Shown: positions 40,732 to 51,981 of the stretch, in pieces
Layout: each line of letters begins with the position of its first letter
Numbering within the stretch: position 1 is the stretch's first letter
The notes under the pieces: model-generated
The model's database searches: none
What the model was told of the DNA's origin: nothing
The model's input: the letters and a program-made list of their open reading frames with translations, nothing else
Translations under genes and position numbers: made by a program
DNA from: Escherichia phage iGC_PHA_EC001
Sequence record: OR437326.1
DNA: 64,000 nucleotides
Direction: 5' to 3' (one strand)

Positions 40732-42738
40732 ATGAATTTAACAAGACCTAATAGTGCGATAGCCGATCTGGTAGAAGCTACTTATCGAAAACGTCGCAGC
40801 TTTGAGGCAGGTTTTACATTACGTAATTCCCGTGAAGTGTTGCTGTTAGCAGCAGAAGGGAATTATTACCAATGGAAAGGAACTTTTCCTAAAGTAGTTC
40901 CAGCAAACTCTACGCCAGCCGCCACAGGTGGTATTTCTTCCCTTGCATGGCAAAGTGTTGGGACCGCTGATGATATAGCAATTATCAATGCCAAGTTTAC
41001 GGCAATGCAGCAACAAATTGATGATCTGTCGGAAACAATACCTGAAGCTGGTAAATCGGCTTATCAGATCGCACTTGATAATGGTTTTGTTGGAACAGAA
41101 GCACAATGGCTTGCCTCTTTGAAAGGGGATACTGGTGCTCAACTTAATATTAAAGGATCATTAGCAAGCACTAGTGAACTACCATCCACAGGTAACGTTG
41201 CAGGGGACGGTTATATCGTAGGCGATGTAATCTACGCTTGGGATGGTTCTGTTTGGAAACTTATTTCTTCTCTTGGGCCAGAAGGTAAATCAGCTTACGA
41301 GGTATGGTTGGCAGATGGTAATACAGGATCTGTTTATGATTTTCTTACCTCTATAAAAGGTGATAAAGGTGATGTTGGTCCTACAGGGCCACAGGGAGCA
41401 CCTGGTGTTAACGCCAACGGTTTTGATTATCGTGGGGATTTGCCTTCTACAAGTAACTTACCACAACCTAACTCGGAAAACGTAAGCCAAGCTTATTCTA
41501 TCAATGGTAATCTTTATGTCTCTAACGGGACAGCTTGGGTCAACATGGGTAATATTGTTGGTCCTCAAGGTCCACAAGGTGAGGCAGGTAAAGACGGTCT
41601 TGATGGAACAGATGGAGATGAAGGGAAATCTGCATATCAAAGTTGGCTGGATGCTGGTAATGAAGGGACAGAAGTAGATTTTATTGCCTCACTTAAAGGT
41701 CCAAAAGGAGACAAGGGTGATCAAGGAGAGCGAGGTCCACAAGGTGAACTAGGTCCACAAGGACCAGTGGGTGCAACAGGATCAGGCTTAGAGATTATCG
41801 GGGTTCTGAACAGTGAAGCTGAACTTCCTCCTACTGGAGAAGTAGGCGATGCATATAAAATTAATAATGATTTGTATGTTTGGGTTCAAGATGCTACGGA
41901 ATGGATGAATGTTGGCAGTCTTGGAGGAATATCAATTACAGCTAAAGGTCATGTTCCGAACAGTGAAGCTCTCCCTGTTTACAATAACTATGGTGATGCT
42001 TACTTAACTGAAGACACTAGTAATCTTTACATCTATACTTACGATCAAGACACCAATTCCGCATCTTTTGTTGACATGGGAAGTATTAAAGGTGACAAAG
42101 GTGAGAAGGGTGATCCTGGAACAAACGGAACCAACGGTACTGATGGGACCAACGGTAAGGACGGCGCACAGTGGTTTGTAGCAACAACTAATCCAGTCGC
42201 AGGAGACGGTGTTATCAATGATTACGCCTTCAATACTAACACTGGAGCAGTGTTTAAGAAAACAGATTCTTCTACGTGGACACTTATAGGAACTCTTCCT
42301 AGTATACCAGAAGCCCCTCAAGATGGCTTGACGTATGGTCGTTCTGATGGAAACTGGATCGAAATATCAGGATCAGACCCTACAGAAGCTATAACACCGA
42401 CTAGAGTTACAGCAGGTTTCATGGAACTTGAAACAACTACTGCCAACTCTGGAGCATCTTGGACTCCTTCTGGAACTTCCAATATGTATGTTGTTACAGT
42501 AACTGACGCTCTGACAGTTGGAGCATGGCCTGGTGTCACTGGCTCTACAAAACCTAAAGCGTTTTCAGCAATGATTTATTTGATTCAAGATACAACGGGA
42601 CACACGGTTACACTAGATGCGTCTTATGGAGCACTAAATGATACAGAAATAGCAACTACTGCTAACGCAGTAACAATTTTGCAATTAACGTATCCTGGTG
42701 TGGGTGATATCGTGGACATGGTTGTTGTAACACGATAG
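40732..42738 (+). CDS. tail fibre protein with phage-fibre repeats and collagen-like Gly-X-Y tracts
   Basis: Three copies of GKSAY..L..G..G....F..S.KG repeat, each followed by Gly-X-Y runs (KGDKGDVGPTGPQGAPG; GPQGPQGEAGKDG; KGPKGDKGDQGERGPQGELGPQGPVG; KGDKGEKGDPGTNGTNGTDGTNGKDG). Confidence 0.6.
   Translation: MNLTRPNSAIADLVEATYRKRRSFEAGFTLRNSREVLLLAAEGNYYQWKGTFPKVVPANSTPAATGGISSLAWQSVGTADDIAIINAKFTAMQQQIDDLSETIPEAGKSAYQIALDNGFVGTEAQWLASLKGDTGAQLNIKGSLASTSELPSTGNVAGDGYIVGDVIYAWDGSVWKLISSLGPEGKSAYEVWLADGNTGSVYDFLTSIKGDKGDVGPTGPQGAPGVNANGFDYRGDLPSTSNLPQPNSENVSQAYSINGNLYVSNGTAWVNMGNIVGPQGPQGEAGKDGLDGTDGDEGKSAYQSWLDAGNEGTEVDFIASLKGPKGDKGDQGERGPQGELGPQGPVGATGSGLEIIGVLNSEAELPPTGEVGDAYKINNDLYVWVQDATEWMNVGSLGGISITAKGHVPNSEALPVYNNYGDAYLTEDTSNLYIYTYDQDTNSASFVDMGSIKGDKGEKGDPGTNGTNGTDGTNGKDGAQWFVATTNPVAGDGVINDYAFNTNTGAVFKKTDSSTWTLIGTLPSIPEAPQDGLTYGRSDGNWIEISGSDPTEAITPTRVTAGFMELETTTANSGASWTPSGTSNMYVVTVTDALTVGAWPGVTGSTKPKAFSAMIYLIQDTTGHTVTLDASYGALNDTEIATTANAVTILQLTYPGVGDIVDMVVVTR
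41355..42165 (+). repeat. collagen-like Gly-X-Y coding repeats within fibre gene
   Basis: Four separate Gly-X-Y tracts seen directly in translation. Confidence 0.6.
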
Positions 42739-42779: not shown

Positions 42780-43814
42780 ATGTTTCCAATTCCAATATTT
42801 ACTATTATGACCAGCACTGGTGTCGTTCCTCTGCCAGCAGGTATTGTTAAAAAAGTAATCACTTTAGATTACCCAGATAATGCTGGTAATTCTAACAGCA
42901 GTTTAGCAATTTTGCTTAATGATGGTAGATTGTTCACTCAAGGCGCAAACCTTTTTGGTGAGATTGCAGATGGAACTCGTAGTGCACGATTCAATAATTT
43001 CCACTTGGCTTCTACTGTAGCAGCGGATGTGTTTACCGCAGATCGTTGTTTTGTTATTAAAACTAACAGTGGGGGATGGCAATATTCAGGATTGACAGCA
43101 GGGTTGGTAGGATCTATAGCAGCAGGTGGTACGGACGCATGTGTAACTACTTGGACCAGCTTTCCATCTGTAATAACAGGGACTATCTCTTTAGCCAATC
43201 TTAAAGAGGTTAAGGGAGGATATAACAACACTCTCTGGTTAATGAATAGTGGTGTTCTTTACGGATCTGGTCAAAACACAGTAGGCAGTTTAGGTGCAAG
43301 TAATACTAACGAAGTTTCTACTCCTCGTCAGATAACAAGTGCAGCAGTTGCTTTTGATGCAGGTTACAACCAATGCTCTTATGTCAACAATGTGGGAACC
43401 TTGCGTGTTTGTGGAGCTAGTAAAGGCTTAGCAGGTAATAATAACACAACAACAGCTTTTGTCAATGCCAAGATATCCGCTACTGAAACAGTGTATGTCA
43501 AAGATTACATCAATACGGTTTCCCAGACAATAGTTGTAGGAGATACCTCCGGTGGCACGGGTACAGTAAACTACTTATATGTTAGATCTAATACAGAAAC
43601 AACCTACACTAAACTGGATACCTTTGCAGCAGGTTTCTCAACATGGAAGTTTCCACCAAGCCGCCACTCTTTTTTCGTTGGGATCAATAATTCCTTGTGG
43701 GCTATTGGTAAGAACTACACTGCAAACTTAGGTTTGGGGTATGATTCTGCGAGCGGAGATCCACTCCAAGTGGAAAACCAGTTAAACCTGAAGGAGTGGG
43801 TTCCTGGGATATAA
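42780..43814 (+). CDS. RCC1-repeat-like beta-propeller protein (putative receptor-binding protein)
   Basis: Several repeats resembling RCC1 blades (LLNDGRLFTQGANLFGEIADGT; LWLMNSGVLYGSGQNTVGSLGASNT; NNVGTLRVCGASKGLAGNNNTT). Confidence 0.4.
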   Translation: MFPIPIFTIMTSTGVVPLPAGIVKKVITLDYPDNAGNSNSSLAILLNDGRLFTQGANLFGEIADGTRSARFNNFHLASTVAADVFTADRCFVIKTNSGGWQYSGLTAGLVGSIAAGGTDACVTTWTSFPSVITGTISLANLKEVKGGYNNTLWLMNSGVLYGSGQNTVGSLGASNTNEVSTPRQITSAAVAFDAGYNQCSYVNNVGTLRVCGASKGLAGNNNTTTAFVNAKISATETVYVKDYINTVSQTIVVGDTSGGTGTVNYLYVRSNTETTYTKLDTFAAGFSTWKFPPSRHSFFVGINNSLWAIGKNYTANLGLGYDSASGDPLQVENQLNLKEWVPGI

Positions 43815-45451
43815 ACAAGCTCACAAGCGTTCATACGCTGAATATGGATGTTACTAACCAATTAGGTTATCAAGGAACCTTTTTCGTTTATAATGGAGAT
43901 ATGTATTATTCCGGTATTTGGAAAGATGGGAAAGCCTCGTATCTGTTCAATAGTGGTCTAAACTATAATAAATTCACACCAATAGCAAGCTCCGTGATTA
44001 CGGGTGATATTCTGGCAACTGGTTTAACTACAGATTCTTTAGGAATTTGTATTGTAGGTGGAACTAAACAGTTGACACATTCTGTTAGCCCAGAAGGAGG
44101 TAAACTTTTCAATATTAAATACACTTCTTCTGCCCCTGCAAACATGACAATATCATCTACTGGTTTAATGACTTTCCATGCAGAAGGTGGTTTTGATGCA
44201 GGTATGACAGCCTTAAACGCTGAAGGAACAACTTTATCAGATACCTCTGGAGGATATGCTTCAACATTGAGTGTTTACACCCCTAGCTTATCTGCGATGG
44301 ATGTAGGAACAACACAAACAATGGTAGCAGAAATAACGCCAACAGGAGCAGCAAGCTTACCTGGTATGGTTGTTGAGTATACAACTACAGATCCTAATGT
44401 TGCTACAGTAGATCCTACAACTGGTGTAATAACTGGTGTTGGTGATGGTGGTTGTAGAATTGGTTGCACAGCTACGTATCAAGGTGTTGTTACCGCTTCT
44501 GATAGTTCTTATTTAACGGTGAACGCTGTTGCGGGAAAGGAGTTAGCTCCATCTCCGAGTAGTAGTTTAACGGTTCTAAACGGATATTTCAACCACTCGG
44601 CAGATGGGGCAATCACGTTCCCAATTTTATCGGGTACTGTCACACCAGCTAACTTTGTAGTTAAGGTGGATGACGTTGTAATACCTTCAAATAAAGTAAT
44701 ATTTAGAAATAAAGCTTTCTCTACAGTGGATAGTTATCCAGCAGGAGAATATAGACTGGCTATTGAATTTGCAAGTGCTTCGGTAGTGAATAGTGTTGAT
44801 GTGTCTATGGAAGCAAATCCAGATCTTTTAGAATTATGGGGCGGCAACAGAATTGGTTATTCTACAAGCCCAGCCTCACAATTCTTAAAAGGTTGTGCTA
44901 ACTTAAGACGAATAACTTCTGATTGTTTTAGTAACACATCTTACACCGGAACATCTATAAGTGGTATCTTCTCTGGCTGTACAAGTTTGACAGCTATCCC
45001 TGAAGGATTATTCAGTGATGCTTTATTTCCTTCAATGACAACAATGTCAAGCACGTTTGAAGGTTGTACATCTTTAACATCTATTCCTTCAGATTTATTT
45101 AAGAATCTATCAAAAGTTACAAGATATTCTTACACCTTTAAAGATTGCACCTCTCTTGCAGAAGTTCCAGCAGGAATGTTTGATAATATTCCAACGAAAG
45201 TGACCTCCTTAACAGCTACATTCCAAGGTTGTTTAGCACTTACAGATTTTAATAAAATCTTTAATGACAATCCAGGGTTAACTGTTTGTGGTAAACGTGG
45301 AGCATTATCTTCTTTCTTTAGTGGATGCACAAATCTTACAGGAACAGGAACAACATTAACAAATACATTAGGCGGAGTAGCTAATAGTTACCTATTCAGG
45401 TATTGCACAAAACTTTCTGATTATAATAATATTCCTTCGGGTTATAAATAA
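43796..45451 (+). CDS. Ig-like (Big_2-type) plus BspA-type leucine-rich-repeat protein; start uncertain
   Basis: Segment TTDPNVATVDPTTGVITGVGDGG is Big_2-like; C-terminal repeats of F.GCTSLT.IP..LF type; track start is a GTG embedded in AAGGAG, so the true start may be downstream or the gene may be frameshift-coupled to 42780. Confidence 0.4.
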   Translation: MGSWDINKLTSVHTLNMDVTNQLGYQGTFFVYNGDMYYSGIWKDGKASYLFNSGLNYNKFTPIASSVITGDILATGLTTDSLGICIVGGTKQLTHSVSPEGGKLFNIKYTSSAPANMTISSTGLMTFHAEGGFDAGMTALNAEGTTLSDTSGGYASTLSVYTPSLSAMDVGTTQTMVAEITPTGAASLPGMVVEYTTTDPNVATVDPTTGVITGVGDGGCRIGCTATYQGVVTASDSSYLTVNAVAGKELAPSPSSSLTVLNGYFNHSADGAITFPILSGTVTPANFVVKVDDVVIPSNKVIFRNKAFSTVDSYPAGEYRLAIEFASASVVNSVDVSMEANPDLLELWGGNRIGYSTSPASQFLKGCANLRRITSDCFSNTSYTGTSISGIFSGCTSLTAIPEGLFSDALFPSMTTMSSTFEGCTSLTSIPSDLFKNLSKVTRYSYTFKDCTSLAEVPAGMFDNIPTKVTSLTATFQGCLALTDFNKIFNDNPGLTVCGKRGALSSFFSGCTNLTGTGTTLTNTLGGVANSYLFRYCTKLSDYNNIPSGYK

Positions 45452-47661: not shown

Positions 47662-47832
47662 TCCTTATACTTCTAAACGGAAAGTTTCTTTAGATACAAA
47701 ATCGTATCCACCTTTTTCAAGCCAGTCATTGTAAACCTCATCGGCTTGAGACTCTATCATAAAATACCGAGTGGTAACTTCGTCTCCGACAATACGCACA
47801 ATTTTATAGCAAATCATGATACCATTTCCCAT
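47662..47832 (-). CDS. small hypothetical protein (56 aa), not in ORF track
   Basis: ATG overlaps stop of upstream gene (TAATG); fills an otherwise empty 170-nt gap; stop is followed by RBS of next gene. Confidence 0.3.
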
Positions 47833-48044
47833 TAATCTTCCTCCAGATCAATTTCATTATAACAATGTATACAGAAACCATCATTGTGCATATGTTGTTC
47901 ATAAGACATATCTTTACCACAAGACCAACAACGGATATCCCCATCGTCCCATTCACGTTCTTCTTCGCCTTCAAATTCATCTGGTAGGTAAGGCATACCA
48001 AAATAATCTAAATCGTAACTCATATCTTCTCCTACCGAGTCCAC
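47832..48044 (-). CDS. small zinc-ribbon protein (70 aa)
   Basis: CWSC ... CIHC Cys4 pattern; acidic. Confidence 0.35.
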   Translation of the reverse strand: MDSVGEDMSYDLDYFGMPYLPDEFEGEEEREWDDGDIRCWSCGKDMSYEQHMHNDGFCIHCYNEIDLEED

Positions 48045-48622
48045 TCCTTACGTTGTTCAATATGTTCAAGCATATCGTTATACAATGTTTTAAGATGTGG
48101 AACAACTCTTTGATCTTCTGTTTCAAAAAACTTTGTAAGCTGTTCTGCTTTAGCTTTCAACCAACAAAGATGTGCCTCAAGTTCAGTATCAAAACGTCCG
48201 AGCGTTATAATACGACCATCTACTTTTATATGGGCTTTATATTTCTTACGATCTTTTTCGTAATAGAAGCCTACCATAGTGCCATGAGATCTTTTACTTA
48301 CCCTGTAAGCTAAAAACTTGTTAAGATCCCCTGTTACTAAAAGGCAGGTGGCGGGAGAGTAAACTCTCCCTCCTATGATATCTTTATCGAGTTCTAAGTT
48401 TTCCCAGTTATCCCAAGTTTTCAACCAAGTATAGAAGTTGGAAAACAGTTTCCATTCTTCACAGACCGTCACTCCATGATAACAAGGATCACGTTCTTGT
48501 TGGCAAGGGGAGTAACATCTCCCCAACATAGCCATCCATTTCATATAAGCAGGATGAGTTCCATGTTTATCCTTCACCACAATATGTCCATCGAAAACAC
48601 CAACACCATATACTGTTCGCAT
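48032..48622 (-). CDS. AP2-domain DNA-binding protein, homing-endonuclease-like
   Basis: C-terminal segment GFYYEKDRKKYKAHIKVDGRIITLGRFDTELEAHLCW fits the AP2 fold signature; N-terminal W..M..RC...Y.GV.VC..W motif common in phage HNH/AP2 proteins; lies next to the intein-containing polymerase. Confidence 0.45.
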   Translation of the reverse strand: MRTVYGVGVFDGHIVVKDKHGTHPAYMKWMAMLGRCYSPCQQERDPCYHGVTVCEEWKLFSNFYTWLKTWDNWENLELDKDIIGGRVYSPATCLLVTGDLNKFLAYRVSKRSHGTMVGFYYEKDRKKYKAHIKVDGRIITLGRFDTELEAHLCWLKAKAEQLTKFFETEDQRVVPHLKTLYNDMLEHIEQRKEWTR

Positions 48623-48648
48623 AAAACTCCTTTAAAATCAAGTAGATA

Positions 48649-51600
48649 TCAATGACATGTGGCCCAAGAGTTACCCACATCATATCCGGCAGTAAGCTGA
48701 ACGTTAAGATTGTAAAATTCTCCAGCCTTAGTAACAGCTAAAGCAGCAAGTTCTCCTGCCCGACTATAAGCTGTAAACCATCCACCTTTGGGAGATTCAT
48801 GAATGTTAGCCCAAATTTGTCCCGTTTCTTTTTCCTTATTATGCTTCCATTCTTCAACTTTAGCAAGGCATTCTTTATCAATTTTCTTTTGTTCTTCGGG
48901 ATCGTCTACTTTCTTCCAACCTAATGATTCAGGTGAAAACCATTTAAATTCTACAAGGTTACGAGAAACTTCAAGCTGGGCTTCATCGTGATATGCAATC
49001 ATTTGTTGCACGAAATCTTTATTCTTCCAGTCATCTTTAAAGAAGTCAACACTTAGTCCTTCTTCTTCGATCATGTCGTCATAAATAACCATTGCACGTT
49101 TAGCACAGATAACCCCACCACTTTGGAACAGAGAGTTAAGAATCGCGTGAGCAGAACGAGTAGGAACCTTACGACCGTCAATACCCAAAACATATTGTTT
49201 ACCAGTCTTAACCCAAAAATCGTTTAAACGTTCTTTAAGACGCGCCAATGGGAATGCAGCTTCCCAGAAAGCATCAAACACCAATTGACCTGTAAACTTA
49301 TCGCTACCAATTGTTTTAGCAACCTTGTCGGCTTGTGCACCATAGGTAATACCATACTTAACAGATTTAGCAGGACTACGTTCAAATTTACGTCCAATAG
49401 TTTCAGTAATACGTTTTGCCATCATTGTGTGAACATCATTAGGTTTCTCTAACAACAGAGCGTTACAATACTCGTGTGGCTCCGGCTCGTACCGCCAACA
49501 GTTTCCTGTGATGGTAATGCAGTCTTTCTGACGCATGACCCACGTACCAAGTTCTGTTTGTGGACACCAAACATCCTCTACACCCCACTCTTCAATAGTC
49601 AAACTTTGAACAGGAATGTGAGAGCGGTTAGTCAATGTTGCCACTTTTACTTTCTGCTCTTTTGTATTGAAAGCTACAGAGATATTGCCTCCATGCACCA
49701 GGTACGAGGCAGTTAAAGCTGCTTCAAAAAGTTCACCTGGGTTCTGCGCCCAACGCCAAACAGGTTTTTGTTTATGTTCGTGCCAGTAACCATCTGCAAT
49801 CAAGAAACCTTCCAAGAAAGCTACACGCTCGGCATGAGACATATTAACTACACGTTCTACCCACGGAACATCCCATTTACCTTGTTGAACAGAAGTTAAA
49901 CTATTTACCTGATCTTGTTCCATGTTAAATGGAGCATTACAAATAATGTTATCTCCTGTGCAAAGCTCGGCAGTTGTTCTGACTTTAGGCACATAAGTAT
50001 TCCCTTTACTACGGGTATTAACATACCAACGGTGATCTGCTGTTGCACGGTAAGTGTGTGATTTCCCTTTAATCTCAAACGTCTTACTATTTTTATAGAA
50101 GACCTTACCTTTTACTTTAGTCCATTCTTTCAGACCTGTTTCAGCATTGTACCCTAAAATCTCATCCCCTTCCTTCAGGTCGTGATATCCTACCCAACCT
50201 TTACGAGTCAAAGCTTGAGCATCCATCGGCACACAGTAGTGTGATTCAATTTTTGCTTCCAAAGAGTCGAAGTCGTAGCCGATCTGGAAGTATTTAGGAA
50301 CCTCTACACCAAACAAGTTACGCATCTCCCACCCAAACAAAGATGTGACACGAGGAATATTAGCTACAGATCTATGCTTCATACGAGAGGTTGCAGCATC
50401 ACATGTAGCGGCTGGGGTAGGAATACGCCCATCCGCCCTTACTGCGGCTAAGAAACCTTTATCGTATTCTTGATCTTCTTCATCTTCTTCCCAATCAGCA
50501 CCGCCACCTAAAATAGAGTTCCTACGATGCTTATACGTTAAGTATTCTACAATCTGTGTAGCATAAGGAAACTTCTCACTCAAAGCTTGCAGGTTAGGAC
50601 AAATTTCTTTTTCCTGACCTTTGGTAAAACACGGGTTAGTCAATACTTTAAGACCGCGACCTTTACCTTTTGCTATACGCTCTTGAATCTTCCTTTCCAG
50701 GGTTTCCGGTGTGCACTCCAGATGATCACAACGATCCTGACAAAAATTAGAAGATAGAGTTTGCTCAACGTAAGCTCGGATACCTTTCTGAAGTTCTTCC
50801 TCGCTCTTTTTAATCTTGGTGCCAGATTTAAGAGTCAAGTCTTTATCTTTATATTCAGACGGTACCCAACCTAATCCTACAAGCCAGTTTTTAATATGGG
50901 TTGTATCGTTTAATGTTGCAGGAATGTTAGGATCACATAGAGGTTCATCTGCTGCAACTGGCAGTTTCCACTCTTTCCCCAACATAACTAACCACCAATC
51001 GCCATCCCTCTCTTCCAAATGACCATCATGTTTCTTAGCAAAATTGATCATATGGTTAGTTGGCTCTAAGTTCTTTTTAATTTGCAACTTAGGTGGAATA
51101 AAAGCCTTAAGATAACCTTTTGTTGCTGGTTTAGGTGGCAAAATAGGCTCAACGAGTAAACGAAGACGCTCCATTTCTGCATCCAAAAAAGCAAGGTTCT
51201 CTTCTGCTTGTTTCATGTTAAAAGCAAACCCACGGTGTTCCTGGCGTGTAATAATGTCTGCTACACGTTGTTCAAGTTCAAATGGACCTTCCCATTTATC
51301 ATAATCACCCCATTCTTCCATAAGGTAATTATATACACTTGTATTGGCTTTGTTGTCATAGATACAGTAATAAAGCATATCCGCAGCAAAAGTCTTAAAT
51401 CGATCTTCTTCTGGAATCTCTTTACGGAAATCTATTTTTACATCACCACCTGCTTTTCGAGAAAGTGCTGCCAAACTATGTCCTGATTTGCCCTCAATCT
51501 TTCGATCTGGGTTTAACACTTTACTCAAAATCAAGGAGTCAATAAGTTTTACCTTATTTTTGCCCCACGTATTATATTTAACACTGTAATCTAATCCATA

Positions 51601-51981
51601 AAACAGTTTTGTAGCCAACCAGTCGTAGTTGATACCGTTGTGAGCCACAGCCATTTCAACCAGATATTCAGGCTTGTCTTTAAAATAACCTTCATGATTA
51701 ATAAAATCTGGGAAATCTTTTAGTTGAAAATGTGTGTAATCTTGCGCCACATACTCTTTAAGAACATATGTGTATTTACCATCTGACTCTTCATAAGGAC
51801 GCCCATCAAAGATGTATTTAGGGCCATCGTGGAAAGCTACTATTTCTCCTGTTTCATGGTTCTCTAAGACAATACAGTGCATTTGAAATGTGTCTTTGAG
51901 ACGATAAGGACTAGCTAAATAATCAATAGTGTCATTATTCAACAATCCGTTTGCTTCAATATCCCATGTAAACTTACTCAC
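48649..51981 (-). CDS. family A (T7-like) DNA polymerase with 3'-5' exonuclease domain, precursor containing an intein
   Basis: N-terminal DIEANGL (Exo I); motif A DFDSLEAKI; after the insert KSVKYGITYGAQADKVAKTIG (motif B region); C-terminal GIDGRKVPTRSAHAILNSLFQSGG and ...GNSWATCH match T7 gene 5 polymerase pattern; GTG start. Confidence 0.85.
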   Translation of the reverse strand: MSKFTWDIEANGLLNNDTIDYLASPYRLKDTFQMHCIVLENHETGEIVAFHDGPKYIFDGRPYEESDGKYTYVLKEYVAQDYTHFQLKDFPDFINHEGYFKDKPEYLVEMAVAHNGINYDWLATKLFYGLDYSVKYNTWGKNKVKLIDSLILSKVLNPDRKIEGKSGHSLAALSRKAGGDVKIDFRKEIPEEDRFKTFAADMLYYCIYDNKANTSVYNYLMEEWGDYDKWEGPFELEQRVADIITRQEHRGFAFNMKQAEENLAFLDAEMERLRLLVEPILPPKPATKGYLKAFIPPKLQIKKNLEPTNHMINFAKKHDGHLEERDGDWWLVMLGKEWKLPVAADEPLCDPNIPATLNDTTHIKNWLVGLGWVPSEYKDKDLTLKSGTKIKKSEEELQKGIRAYVEQTLSSNFCQDRCDHLECTPETLERKIQERIAKGKGRGLKVLTNPCFTKGQEKEICPNLQALSEKFPYATQIVEYLTYKHRRNSILGGGADWEEDEEDQEYDKGFLAAVRADGRIPTPAATCDAATSRMKHRSVANIPRVTSLFGWEMRNLFGVEVPKYFQIGYDFDSLEAKIESHYCVPMDAQALTRKGWVGYHDLKEGDEILGYNAETGLKEWTKVKGKVFYKNSKTFEIKGKSHTYRATADHRWYVNTRSKGNTYVPKVRTTAELCTGDNIICNAPFNMEQDQVNSLTSVQQGKWDVPWVERVVNMSHAERVAFLEGFLIADGYWHEHKQKPVWRWAQNPGELFEAALTASYLVHGGNISVAFNTKEQKVKVATLTNRSHIPVQSLTIEEWGVEDVWCPQTELGTWVMRQKDCITITGNCWRYEPEPHEYCNALLLEKPNDVHTMMAKRITETIGRKFERSPAKSVKYGITYGAQADKVAKTIGSDKFTGQLVFDAFWEAAFPLARLKERLNDFWVKTGKQYVLGIDGRKVPTRSAHAILNSLFQSGGVICAKRAMVIYDDMIEEEGLSVDFFKDDWKNKDFVQQMIAYHDEAQLEVSRNLVEFKWFSPESLGWKKVDDPEEQKKIDKECLAKVEEWKHNKEKETGQIWANIHESPKGGWFTAYSRAGELAALAVTKAGEFYNLNVQLTAGYDVGNSWATCH
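49501..50235 (-). mobile_element. intein (245 aa) after polymerase motif A, with LAGLIDADG-like motif
   Basis: Begins Cys (CVPMDAQALT), block-B-like TADH, LAGLIDADG-like LEGFLIADGY, ends ...ITITGN followed by Cys +1; excision brings motif A next to the conserved downstream palm sequence. Confidence 0.65.

Follow-up and report, generated by a model that had tools for sequence, protein, structure and literature searches.

An IPA-HNH/AP2 homing-endonuclease-family gene beside the intein-containing DNA polymerase gene of a Phapecoctavirus coliphage

Introduction

Directly downstream of the intein-containing DNA polymerase gene of Escherichia phage iGC_PHA_EC001 lies a small open reading frame, which raises the question whether it is a homing endonuclease gene that moves between coliphages and, if so, how its product might recognize and cut DNA. 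The window analyzed here, that is the whole stretch of DNA of 64,000 nucleotides (sequence record OR437326.1), belongs to a phAPEC8-like coliphage of the genus Phapecoctavirus, and the 2 kb around the open reading frame are 97–99% identical to many Phapecoctavirus genomes. In Vibrio phage ICP1, the genes gp59, gp115/116 and gp209 were described as IPA-HNH homing endonuclease genes (Barth, Dunham & Seed, 2023; PMC10448857). Proteins of this family combine an N-terminal HNH-like domain that is too divergent for the Pfam HNH_3 model with a C-terminal AP2 domain, 29% of the genes are located near polymerase genes, and the family is enriched in several phage lineages (PMC10448857). Their nuclease function was inferred by Barth et al. 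from HHsearch and gene context only (PMC10448857).

Results

The gene and its surroundings

The open reading frame starts with ATG, ends with TAG and encodes 196 amino acids (Table 1). A ribosome-binding site (AAGGAG, 48627–48632) is located 4 nt ahead of the ATG, and 26 nt separate the stop codon of the polymerase gene (48649–48651) from the start of the open reading frame. On the other side, the next small gene begins with the ATG at 48021–48023, and homology to genomes with an empty site picks up again at TAGGAGAAGATATG, downstream of the cassette. The gene has the same orientation as the replication operon and a G+C content of 0.389 compared to 0.396 for the genome. In a scan of the locus for promoters and terminators, the counts did not exceed those in shuffled sequence and no promoter belonging to the gene itself rose above background. 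At NCBI, a protein with 100% identity is entered as 'HNH endonuclease [Escherichia phage iGC_PHA_EC001]', and in the PHROGs collection the product matches phrog_953, which is annotated as 'HNH endonuclease' (E 7.6e-75). Together with intact alleles under purifying selection (see below), the NCBI protein and the phrog_953 match identify the open reading frame as a real gene. Searches of the window by tblastn and regular expressions yielded neither paralogs nor other HNH, GIY-YIG or LAGLIDADG genes.

Table 1. Features of the polymerase-proximal cassette and its neighborhood in the window (aa, amino acids of the respective product).
Feature	Position	Strand	Basis
Family-A DNA polymerase gene, 1110 aa, essential neighbor upstream of the cassette	48649..51981	-	Pfam DNA_pol_A, phrog_17
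Intein, 245 aa, separate selfish element	49501..50235	-	Exact in-frame indel relative to phAPEC8
Last eight polymerase codons, cluster of mostly synonymous substitutions	48652..48675	-	Beside the cassette; haplotype comparison
Cassette leader with its own ribosome-binding site	48623..48648	-	Sequence; Justusliebigvirus type, not Phapecoctavirus type
Free-standing gene of the IPA-HNH/AP2 homing-endonuclease family	48032..48622	-	Open reading frame, translation, phrog_953, gp59 similarity
IPA-HNH-like domain, aa 1-107	48302..48622	-	AF2; predicted beta hairpins, four helices, then beta-beta-alpha
Putative beta-beta-alpha-metal element, aa 77-104	48311..48394	-	AF2, motif spacing, weak Foldseek matches
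AP2-type DNA-binding domain (predicted), aa ~112-166	48125..48289	-	Family profile, Pfam in homologs, AF2 model
C-terminal helical extension (predicted), aa 167-196	48035..48124	-	AF2 helix 174-189
Downstream junction	48021..48034	-	Cassette TAG overlaps the AGGAG ribosome-binding site of the next gene

Membership in the IPA-HNH family

In a BLASTP comparison, the protein was 38% identical to ICP1 gp59 over 140 aa (E 7e-22), and the alignment extended from the N-terminal domain into the AP2 domain with the common motif LDKDI..G.KVY.P..C.LV...IN. Like the ICP1 IPA-HNH genes, the gene is free-standing and encodes an N-terminal LDKD...Y(S/C)P..C....N motif and a C-terminal AP2 domain, with no match to Pfam HNH_3. 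It also shares with gp59 its place immediately behind the gene for an rV5-like DNA polymerase, and the ICP1 polymerase is a distant homolog of the one in the window. With 196 compared to 272 aa, the protein differs from gp59 in lacking an N-terminal extension of approximately 60 aa, and the host lineage differs from that of the ICP1 system in being the Stephanstirmvirinae of E. coli. Because of the homology to gp59, the domain make-up and the position of the gene, its product belongs, judged by sequence, to the published IPA-HNH homing-endonuclease family: a gp59-like N-terminal domain and an AP2 domain occur together, Pfam HNH_3 gives no match, and the gene is free-standing beside a polymerase gene and sporadically distributed. 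In this respect it is an ordinary gene that was already annotated. A tblastn search located the family at 2,416 places spread over 1,569 phage records; a single genome contained as many as 6 copies, and the commonest hosts were Vibrio (824 records) and Rheinheimera (115 records), as expected for IPA-HNH genes. BFVD contained 67 viral structural relatives at E≤1e-3.

The C-terminal AP2 domain

Neither Pfam nor NCBIfam gave a significant match to the 196-aa protein, and Pfam AP2 (PF00847) reached E 0.1 and 13.4 bits at a cut-off of 33.3 when the protein was searched alone. At the level of the family, eight of 24 homologs matched Pfam AP2, with a best E value of 4e-6. When the alignment of these 24 homologs was used as a profile to search the PDB, residues ~112–159 aligned to the AP2 domain of the plant factor WRI1 with E 3.4e-5 and more weakly to those of ERF1 and ERF096, a likeness to plant AP2/ERF factors. 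The AF2 model of the full protein (mean pLDDT 90.9) predicts the AP2 topology with strands at 119–122, 127–134 and 137–144 and a helix at 147–166, and the top matches of this model in a Foldseek search of the PDB were AP2 domains, all of them non-significant. From family profile and predicted fold, it is clear at family level that the C-terminal half is an AP2 domain. Matches to DIX and DUF1678 in Pfam/NCBIfam were at chance level, and a weak match of the AP2 helix to PADLOC PDC-S05 (E 0.007–0.03) was judged meaningless. No CapR domain was detected in the window protein; the distant relative P0165 contains CapR and IPA domains together. The combination of an AP2 domain and an HNH-type module in a mobile gene resembles the HNH-AP2 endonucleases of Magnani et al. 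(2004), which, compared by their description, pair AP2 with HNH domains.

The N-terminal domain and its putative active site

For the isolated N-terminal domain, AF2 predicts strands at 77–79 and 94–96 and a helix at 98–104 with a pLDDT of 90.5. In this region, the residues E-L-D79-K80-D81 ... Y88-S-P ... C93-L-L-V-T ... N101 form an active-site-like motif. The domain is very widespread: in a search of 1.84 billion proteins, its profile matched 30,762 cluster representatives at E≤1e-3. Within the best 150 of these 30,762, which are mutually less than 50% identical, no variation occurs at W29, R35, Y48, W57, F63, W66, D79, K80, Y88, C93 and N101, and D81 is retained in 149. The strict D-K-D...Y...N conservation across such divergent representatives looks like that of an active site. 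At the end of strand beta-1, where canonical enzymes have their catalytic His, this residue is absent and K80 is found in 24/24 close homologs and 150/150 representatives; the invariance of K80 within the predicted beta-beta-alpha element suggests that Lys stands in place of the canonical catalytic His. A catalytic motif that does without the usual His is the odd point of an otherwise ordinary finding.

Compared by eye with the HNH_3 motif of ICP1 gp80 (VNHKDGNKLNNHVNNLEHVSHSQN), the spacing fits an alignment in which D79 would correspond to the Asp/Asn ahead of the catalytic His, K80 to the His itself and N101 to the metal-binding Asn. Similar to HNH_3/I-HmuI-type proteins, for which gp80 (NUMOD4 + HNH_3) is an example, the window protein is the product of a small free-standing phage gene with a predicted beta-beta-alpha element, an Asp before the position of the general base and an Asn in the first turn of the helix, with the spacing T/S, three residues, N. 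The family differs from HNH_3 in having the invariant Lys instead of His, Y-S-P instead of the structural Asn pair and a loop that is longer by 3 residues, and from NUMOD4 + HNH_3 proteins in that helices (W..M..RC...) instead of a NUMOD4 sheet precede the element, with undetectable profile similarity. In hhalign comparisons of the IPA domain or its beta-beta-alpha part with 110 NUMOD4/HNH_3 proteins, the probability was below 1% at four settings, and the HNH match that Barth et al. report from HHsearch was not recovered by hhalign. Pfam HNH did not match any of the 24 homologs, 10 distant representatives or gp59, and PDB sequence searches with the protein, the N-terminal profile and a 39-column motif profile returned no nuclease. 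For the C-terminal half, these PDB searches gave AP2 domains only; hits of the N-terminal half, such as those to trypsin and TrpRS, were attributed to chance.

Foldseek retrieved five PDB matches for the isolated N-terminal domain at E≤10, two of which were HNH enzymes. The top match was PacI, with 31 columns, an rmsd of 2.5 Å and a non-significant E value of 5; the Gme HNH nickase followed with a likewise non-significant E value of 8.3. PacI (PDB 3ldy/3m7k; His-Me finger group 20) is described as an active HNH-fold enzyme without the His, in which a Tyr of the omega-loop acts for the His while an Asp and an Asn bind the metal. According to the model, the IPA domain would resemble PacI in having a loop Tyr (the invariant Y88) between the strands together with D79 and N101. 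By its description, PacI is a restriction enzyme that forms homodimers, contains Cys4 zinc sites and, unlike the window protein, has no AP2 domain, and the fold match between the two is short, non-significant and not accompanied by sequence similarity.

An earlier note on this DNA had called an AP2/HNH-type endonuclease-like gene next to an intein-containing polymerase gene. The coordinates, the position directly downstream of the polymerase gene and the presence of an intein in the polymerase were confirmed. The AP2 part of the assignment stands at family level by the WRI1 alignment, the Pfam matches among the homologs and the AF2 model; the HNH part proved atypical, with Lys in place of His and no Pfam HNH match.

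Presence, absence and junctions of the gene

When the 2 kb around the gene were used as megablast query, nine of 127 related records covered the open reading frame and the rest aligned in two pieces with roughly 577 nt missing. The gene is polymorphic for presence and absence among relatives that are 98–100% identical. Phages with an empty site include phAPEC8, anhysbys, DIJ07P2, tuntematon, vB_Ec-G1, Schickermooser and ETEC-TG, in which the stop codon of the polymerase gene and the next gene are separated by a spacer of ~44 nt with the terminator hairpin AAGGGGCTTCTGCCCCTT. The hairpin of the empty site is also designated by its GGGGCTTCTGCCCC sequence. In the phages 536P1, nieznany, SF1-1 and UP17, one Phapecoctavirus allele of the gene sits within the hairpin, which it has replaced, and the resident leader TCTAAC...TAAGG was kept. 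The other Phapecoctavirus allele, in the window and in EF1-1, arrives with the leader TATCTACTTGATTTTAAAGGAGTTTT, which is of Justusliebigvirus type and common to VEcB and phi92 in the form CA(T/A)CTCTTTGATTTTAAAGGAGTTTTT, and its junction differs from the 536P1 type. The two Phapecoctavirus alleles are 75–78% identical to each other in flanks of 98–100% identity. Judged from these alignments, the two alleles with their different junctions represent two invasions. A scan of IMG/VR with patterns for further junctions returned one contig.

In VEcB, ECGD1 and many other members of Justusliebigvirus, a copy with 83–86% identity is located directly after an intein-free polymerase gene. Between the two genera, the endonuclease gene has a DNA identity of 85.3%, which exceeds that of the two polymerase exteins (73.6% and 80.7%) and of the nucleotidyltransferase (62.8%), and the phylogeny of the gene is decoupled from that of the host genomes. 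In phi92, of the sister genus Justusliebigvirus, the gene has decayed to a remnant in which, besides leader and ATG, only the final ~45 nt are left. The six alleles that were compared are all intact, and with dN/dS values of 0.11–0.36 the endonuclease alleles are under purifying selection. Between EF1-1 and the window, the part of the gene encoding the AP2 sheet is 90% identical and the remainder 98–100%. Over the last 170 nt of the gene, a stretch that includes the C-terminal helical extension, identity reaches 97% even with 536P1, whose allele is divergent elsewhere, and the gene is thus a mosaic. Comparative genomics shows the endonuclease gene, as far as can be read from alignments, to be a mobile element.

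The polymerase gene and its intein

The polymerase exteins are 99.6–99.8% identical to the phAPEC8 polymerase, which lacks an in-frame insertion of aa 583–827. The first residue of this insertion is Cys, and a further Cys comes right after its terminal ...TGN; in between are a TxxH-like motif, 'TADH', and a single LAGLIDADG-like one, 'LEGFLIADGY'. It is annotated as intein in related records; the Pfam signals are weak both for Intein_splicing (E 0.007) and for LAGLIDADG. The 34 phage records with the intein DNA overlap only in part with the 38 that have the endonuclease gene (coverage ≥80%). Neither of the two is present in phAPEC8, the intein occurs without the endonuclease gene in anhysbys, the endonuclease gene without the intein in phiWec179, SF1-1 and UP17, and both together in the window phage and EF1-1. 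Since all four combinations occur, intein and endonuclease gene assort independently, and the idea that they form one linked element was rejected. A different intein, 324 aa long and with two LAGLIDADG motifs, is located elsewhere in the polymerase of nieznany, after aa 632. An extra 'endonuclease' gene beside an SSB-like gene in nieznany is not a paralog.

The earlier note had also regarded the locus as a hotspot for selfish elements and had proposed presence/absence polymorphism among related phages as a check. The gene is indeed polymorphic among near-identical phages and the empty site was found, and the independent intein, the second, different intein in nieznany and the decayed gene remnant in phi92 bear out the hotspot. 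The sequence comparisons thus support that interpretation of the locus, with nuclease activity and marker exclusion as its inferred parts.

The last eight codons of the polymerase gene, beside the cassette, occur in at least five haplotypes among phages that are otherwise 98–100% identical. The polymerase ends with ...SWATCH in the window, with ...SWSTCH in VEcB of Justusliebigvirus and with ...SWASCH in other Phapecoctavirus phages, so that the window shares Thr with Justusliebigvirus at a position where other Phapecoctavirus polymerases have Ser. This Justusliebigvirus-like Thr suggests a short co-conversion tract, and the substitution cluster may represent such a tract or a target-site variant. 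The cluster is not strictly tied to the presence of the gene, as EF1-1 has the gene and a phAPEC8-like sequence.

Discussion

The most likely account of the locus, to which we assign a probability of about 0.7, is that the AP2 domain targets the protein to DNA, that the beta-beta-alpha element cuts it and that repair copies the cassette together with polymerase markers. The parts of this account that we infer are the catalytic activity, the target site, homing as such and the exclusion of markers. In detail, the AP2 domain and the helical extension would recognize a specific sequence in related phages without the gene, most likely located at the 3' end of the polymerase gene or in the region of the intergenic hairpin, whose place the cassette takes. 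The beta-beta-alpha domain at the N-terminus would then nick or cut the DNA with one metal ion bound to D79 and N101, and K80 or, by analogy to the loop Tyr of PacI, Y88 might take the role of the missing general-base His. During co-infection, the cut genome would be repaired by recombination with the genome that carries the gene and would thereby acquire the cassette along with neighboring polymerase markers. Occupied genomes would be immune to cutting, as their hairpin region has given way to the cassette. A preference of AP2 domains for GC-rich DNA has been stated (PMC10448857 and the CasPR literature), and for this reason one may speculate that the GC-rich hairpin is part of the AP2 target.

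Alternatively, the protein could be a catalytically dead, sequence-specific DNA binder that descends from a homing endonuclease and serves as regulator, silencer or in anti-defence, in which case the patchy distribution would reflect the flux of accessory genes instead of homing. None of the family members examined has the catalytic His, neither sequence nor fold gave a significant match to any nuclease, and His-Me fingers without His or Tyr, such as Smad MH1, are regarded as inactive DNA binders. Moreover, phage proteins that combine AP2 and CapR (CasPRs) act purely as transcriptional silencers, and some database records name relatives of the window protein 'DNA-binding protein'. Nevertheless, we consider a dead binder unlikely: across very divergent representatives, D79-K80-D81, Y88 and N101 vary hardly or not at all, in a manner that resembles an active site, the Asp and Asn that would hold the metal are retained, and a loop Tyr is present as in active PacI. 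The lack of CapR in the window protein also argues against a binder of the CasPR type. The genomic record also bears the signature of a homing life cycle, with the same site occupied in two genera, two junctions, a similarity across genera that exceeds that of the flanks, and a decaying remnant.

An active nuclease might also serve mainly in competition between phages, by excluding co-infecting relatives or satellites, so that copying of the gene would be a by-product. The location beside the essential polymerase gene would permit marker exclusion, purifying selection fits a benefit to the phage, and nuclease genes at boundaries of genetic exchange as well as the co-option of their domains in conflicts between phages and satellites have been reported (Barth et al., 2023; PMC10448857). 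No evidence obtained here separates competition from homing, however, and both may coexist. The phi92 remnant and the many relatives without the gene show that the endonuclease gene is dispensable, which argues against competition as its main role, and we regard this role as quite improbable. Hardly tenable is an ordinary, vertically inherited and immobile accessory gene of the replication module, which would fit the co-orientation with the replication operon, the lack of a promoter above background and the G+C content equal to that of the genome, but which is already contradicted by the absence of the gene from most near-identical relatives, by alleles that are more divergent than the flanks within the genus and less divergent between genera, and by the two junction types.

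With homing by an active nuclease as the preferred reading, a wider proposal concerns the family as a whole. The IPA-HNH domain, whose profile matches over 30,000 clusters at 50% identity, might constitute not a degenerate HNH but a distinct and very abundant catalytic variant of the His-Me finger, in which Lys80 and/or Tyr88 have permanently replaced the His and the Asp/Asn metal site was kept; we hold this proposal tentatively and put its chances at slightly less than even. If it is true, the site downstream of the polymerase gene is a ready-made system for its proof and for mapping of the AP2 target, possibly the GC-rich terminator hairpin.

The gene call itself matters little, since the GenBank annotation, the family and its preference for positions next to polymerase genes were all known already. 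The value of the locus is that of a clean natural experiment, in which near-isogenic coliphages have an empty site, allele 1 or allele 2. This set of phages could show whether a His-less IPA-HNH protein cuts DNA, what AP2 domains recognize in phages and how far polymerase markers are dragged along in therapeutic cocktails that mix relatives. The polymerase intein varies independently in the same phages, and the phi92 remnant at the same position adds a stage of decay.

Remnants and flanks of the endonuclease gene

In phi92, the supposedly intergenic region that follows the polymerase gene is what is left of a decayed endonuclease gene: the leader, the ribosome-binding site, the ATG and the last ~45 nt are still there, and the interior of the gene is deleted. 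MRostami-2023b, represented by an UNVERIFIED record (L019), was counted among the phages without the endonuclease gene. Its sequence shows the leader of allele 2, after which a stretch of N occupies precisely the position of the gene, and the absence may reflect an assembly gap and not an empty site.

Upstream of the endonuclease gene, the final eight polymerase codons (window 48652-48675) were found in at least five haplotypes in a set of phages with 98-100% identity elsewhere. The differences are mostly synonymous, with one additional Ser/Thr change, and the polymerase stop codon is variable as well, being either TGA or TAG. The variation at the polymerase end may be the footprint of a target site or of co-conversion. 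Directly downstream of the endonuclease gene lies the phrog_25582 gene, whose product combines an acidic N-terminus with a zinc-ribbon-like CxxC...CxxC pattern. Justusliebigvirus lacks this gene and the next two small ORFs, and its nucleotidyltransferase gene directly adjoins the endonuclease gene.

Coordinates of features in the window and in related phages (L008, nieznany; L010, phi92)
Feature	Location	Strand	Remark
668-aa ORF	window 40732-42738	+	several collagen-like G-X-Y runs
Tail-fibre-like ORF 43796-45451, 3' part	window 44400-45450	+	identity contrast between relatives
phrog_25582 small gene	window 47832-48023	-	63 aa from ATG 48023
Polymerase mini-intein, 245 aa	window 49501-50235	-	one degenerate LAGLIDADG-like motif
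nieznany polymerase with different intein	L008:5244-8813		intein of 324 aa, two LAGLIDADG motifs
Extra nieznany ORF annotated 'endonuclease', 164 aa	L008:1598-2092		at end of SSB-like gene
Decayed endonuclease gene in phi92	L010:3011-3147		137-nt 'intergenic' region after polymerase gene

Polymerase inteins, a further 'endonuclease' ORF and distant family members

The single LAGLIDADG-like motif of the window intein reads LEGFLIADGY, and the intein ends in G-N instead of the usual H-N ahead of the +1 Cys. Across many phages with differing polymerase exteins this intein is 99-100% identical, and it is also present, with 92-96% identity, in Justusliebigvirus. The intein of nieznany is larger than that of the window (324 versus 245 aa) and is inserted after aa 632 of the polymerase, 50 residues downstream of the window intein site; a relationship to the window intein can be recognised in its splicing blocks.

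The additional 'endonuclease' ORF of nieznany has no counterpart in the window and no match in Pfam, and is not paralogous to the window endonuclease gene. Among distant family members, an IPA-HNH-like domain is joined to a CapR domain in one protein (P0165), and others carry two or three copies of the IPA-HNH-like domain (P0032, P0034), with three matching stretches in the 571 aa of P0032. These fusions and multi-copy proteins indicate domain shuffling within the family.

Tail-fibre-like genes

The C-terminal ~350 aa of the tail-fibre-like protein are 98-100% identical to EF1-1, 536P1 and anhysbys and 44-66% identical to phAPEC8 and nieznany; this part is a receptor-binding module that has been swapped, and its boundaries are sharp. 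The 668-aa collagen-like ORF, in which one of the G-X-Y runs reads GPKGDKGDQGERGPQGELGPQGPVGATG, presumably encodes a tail-fibre protein.
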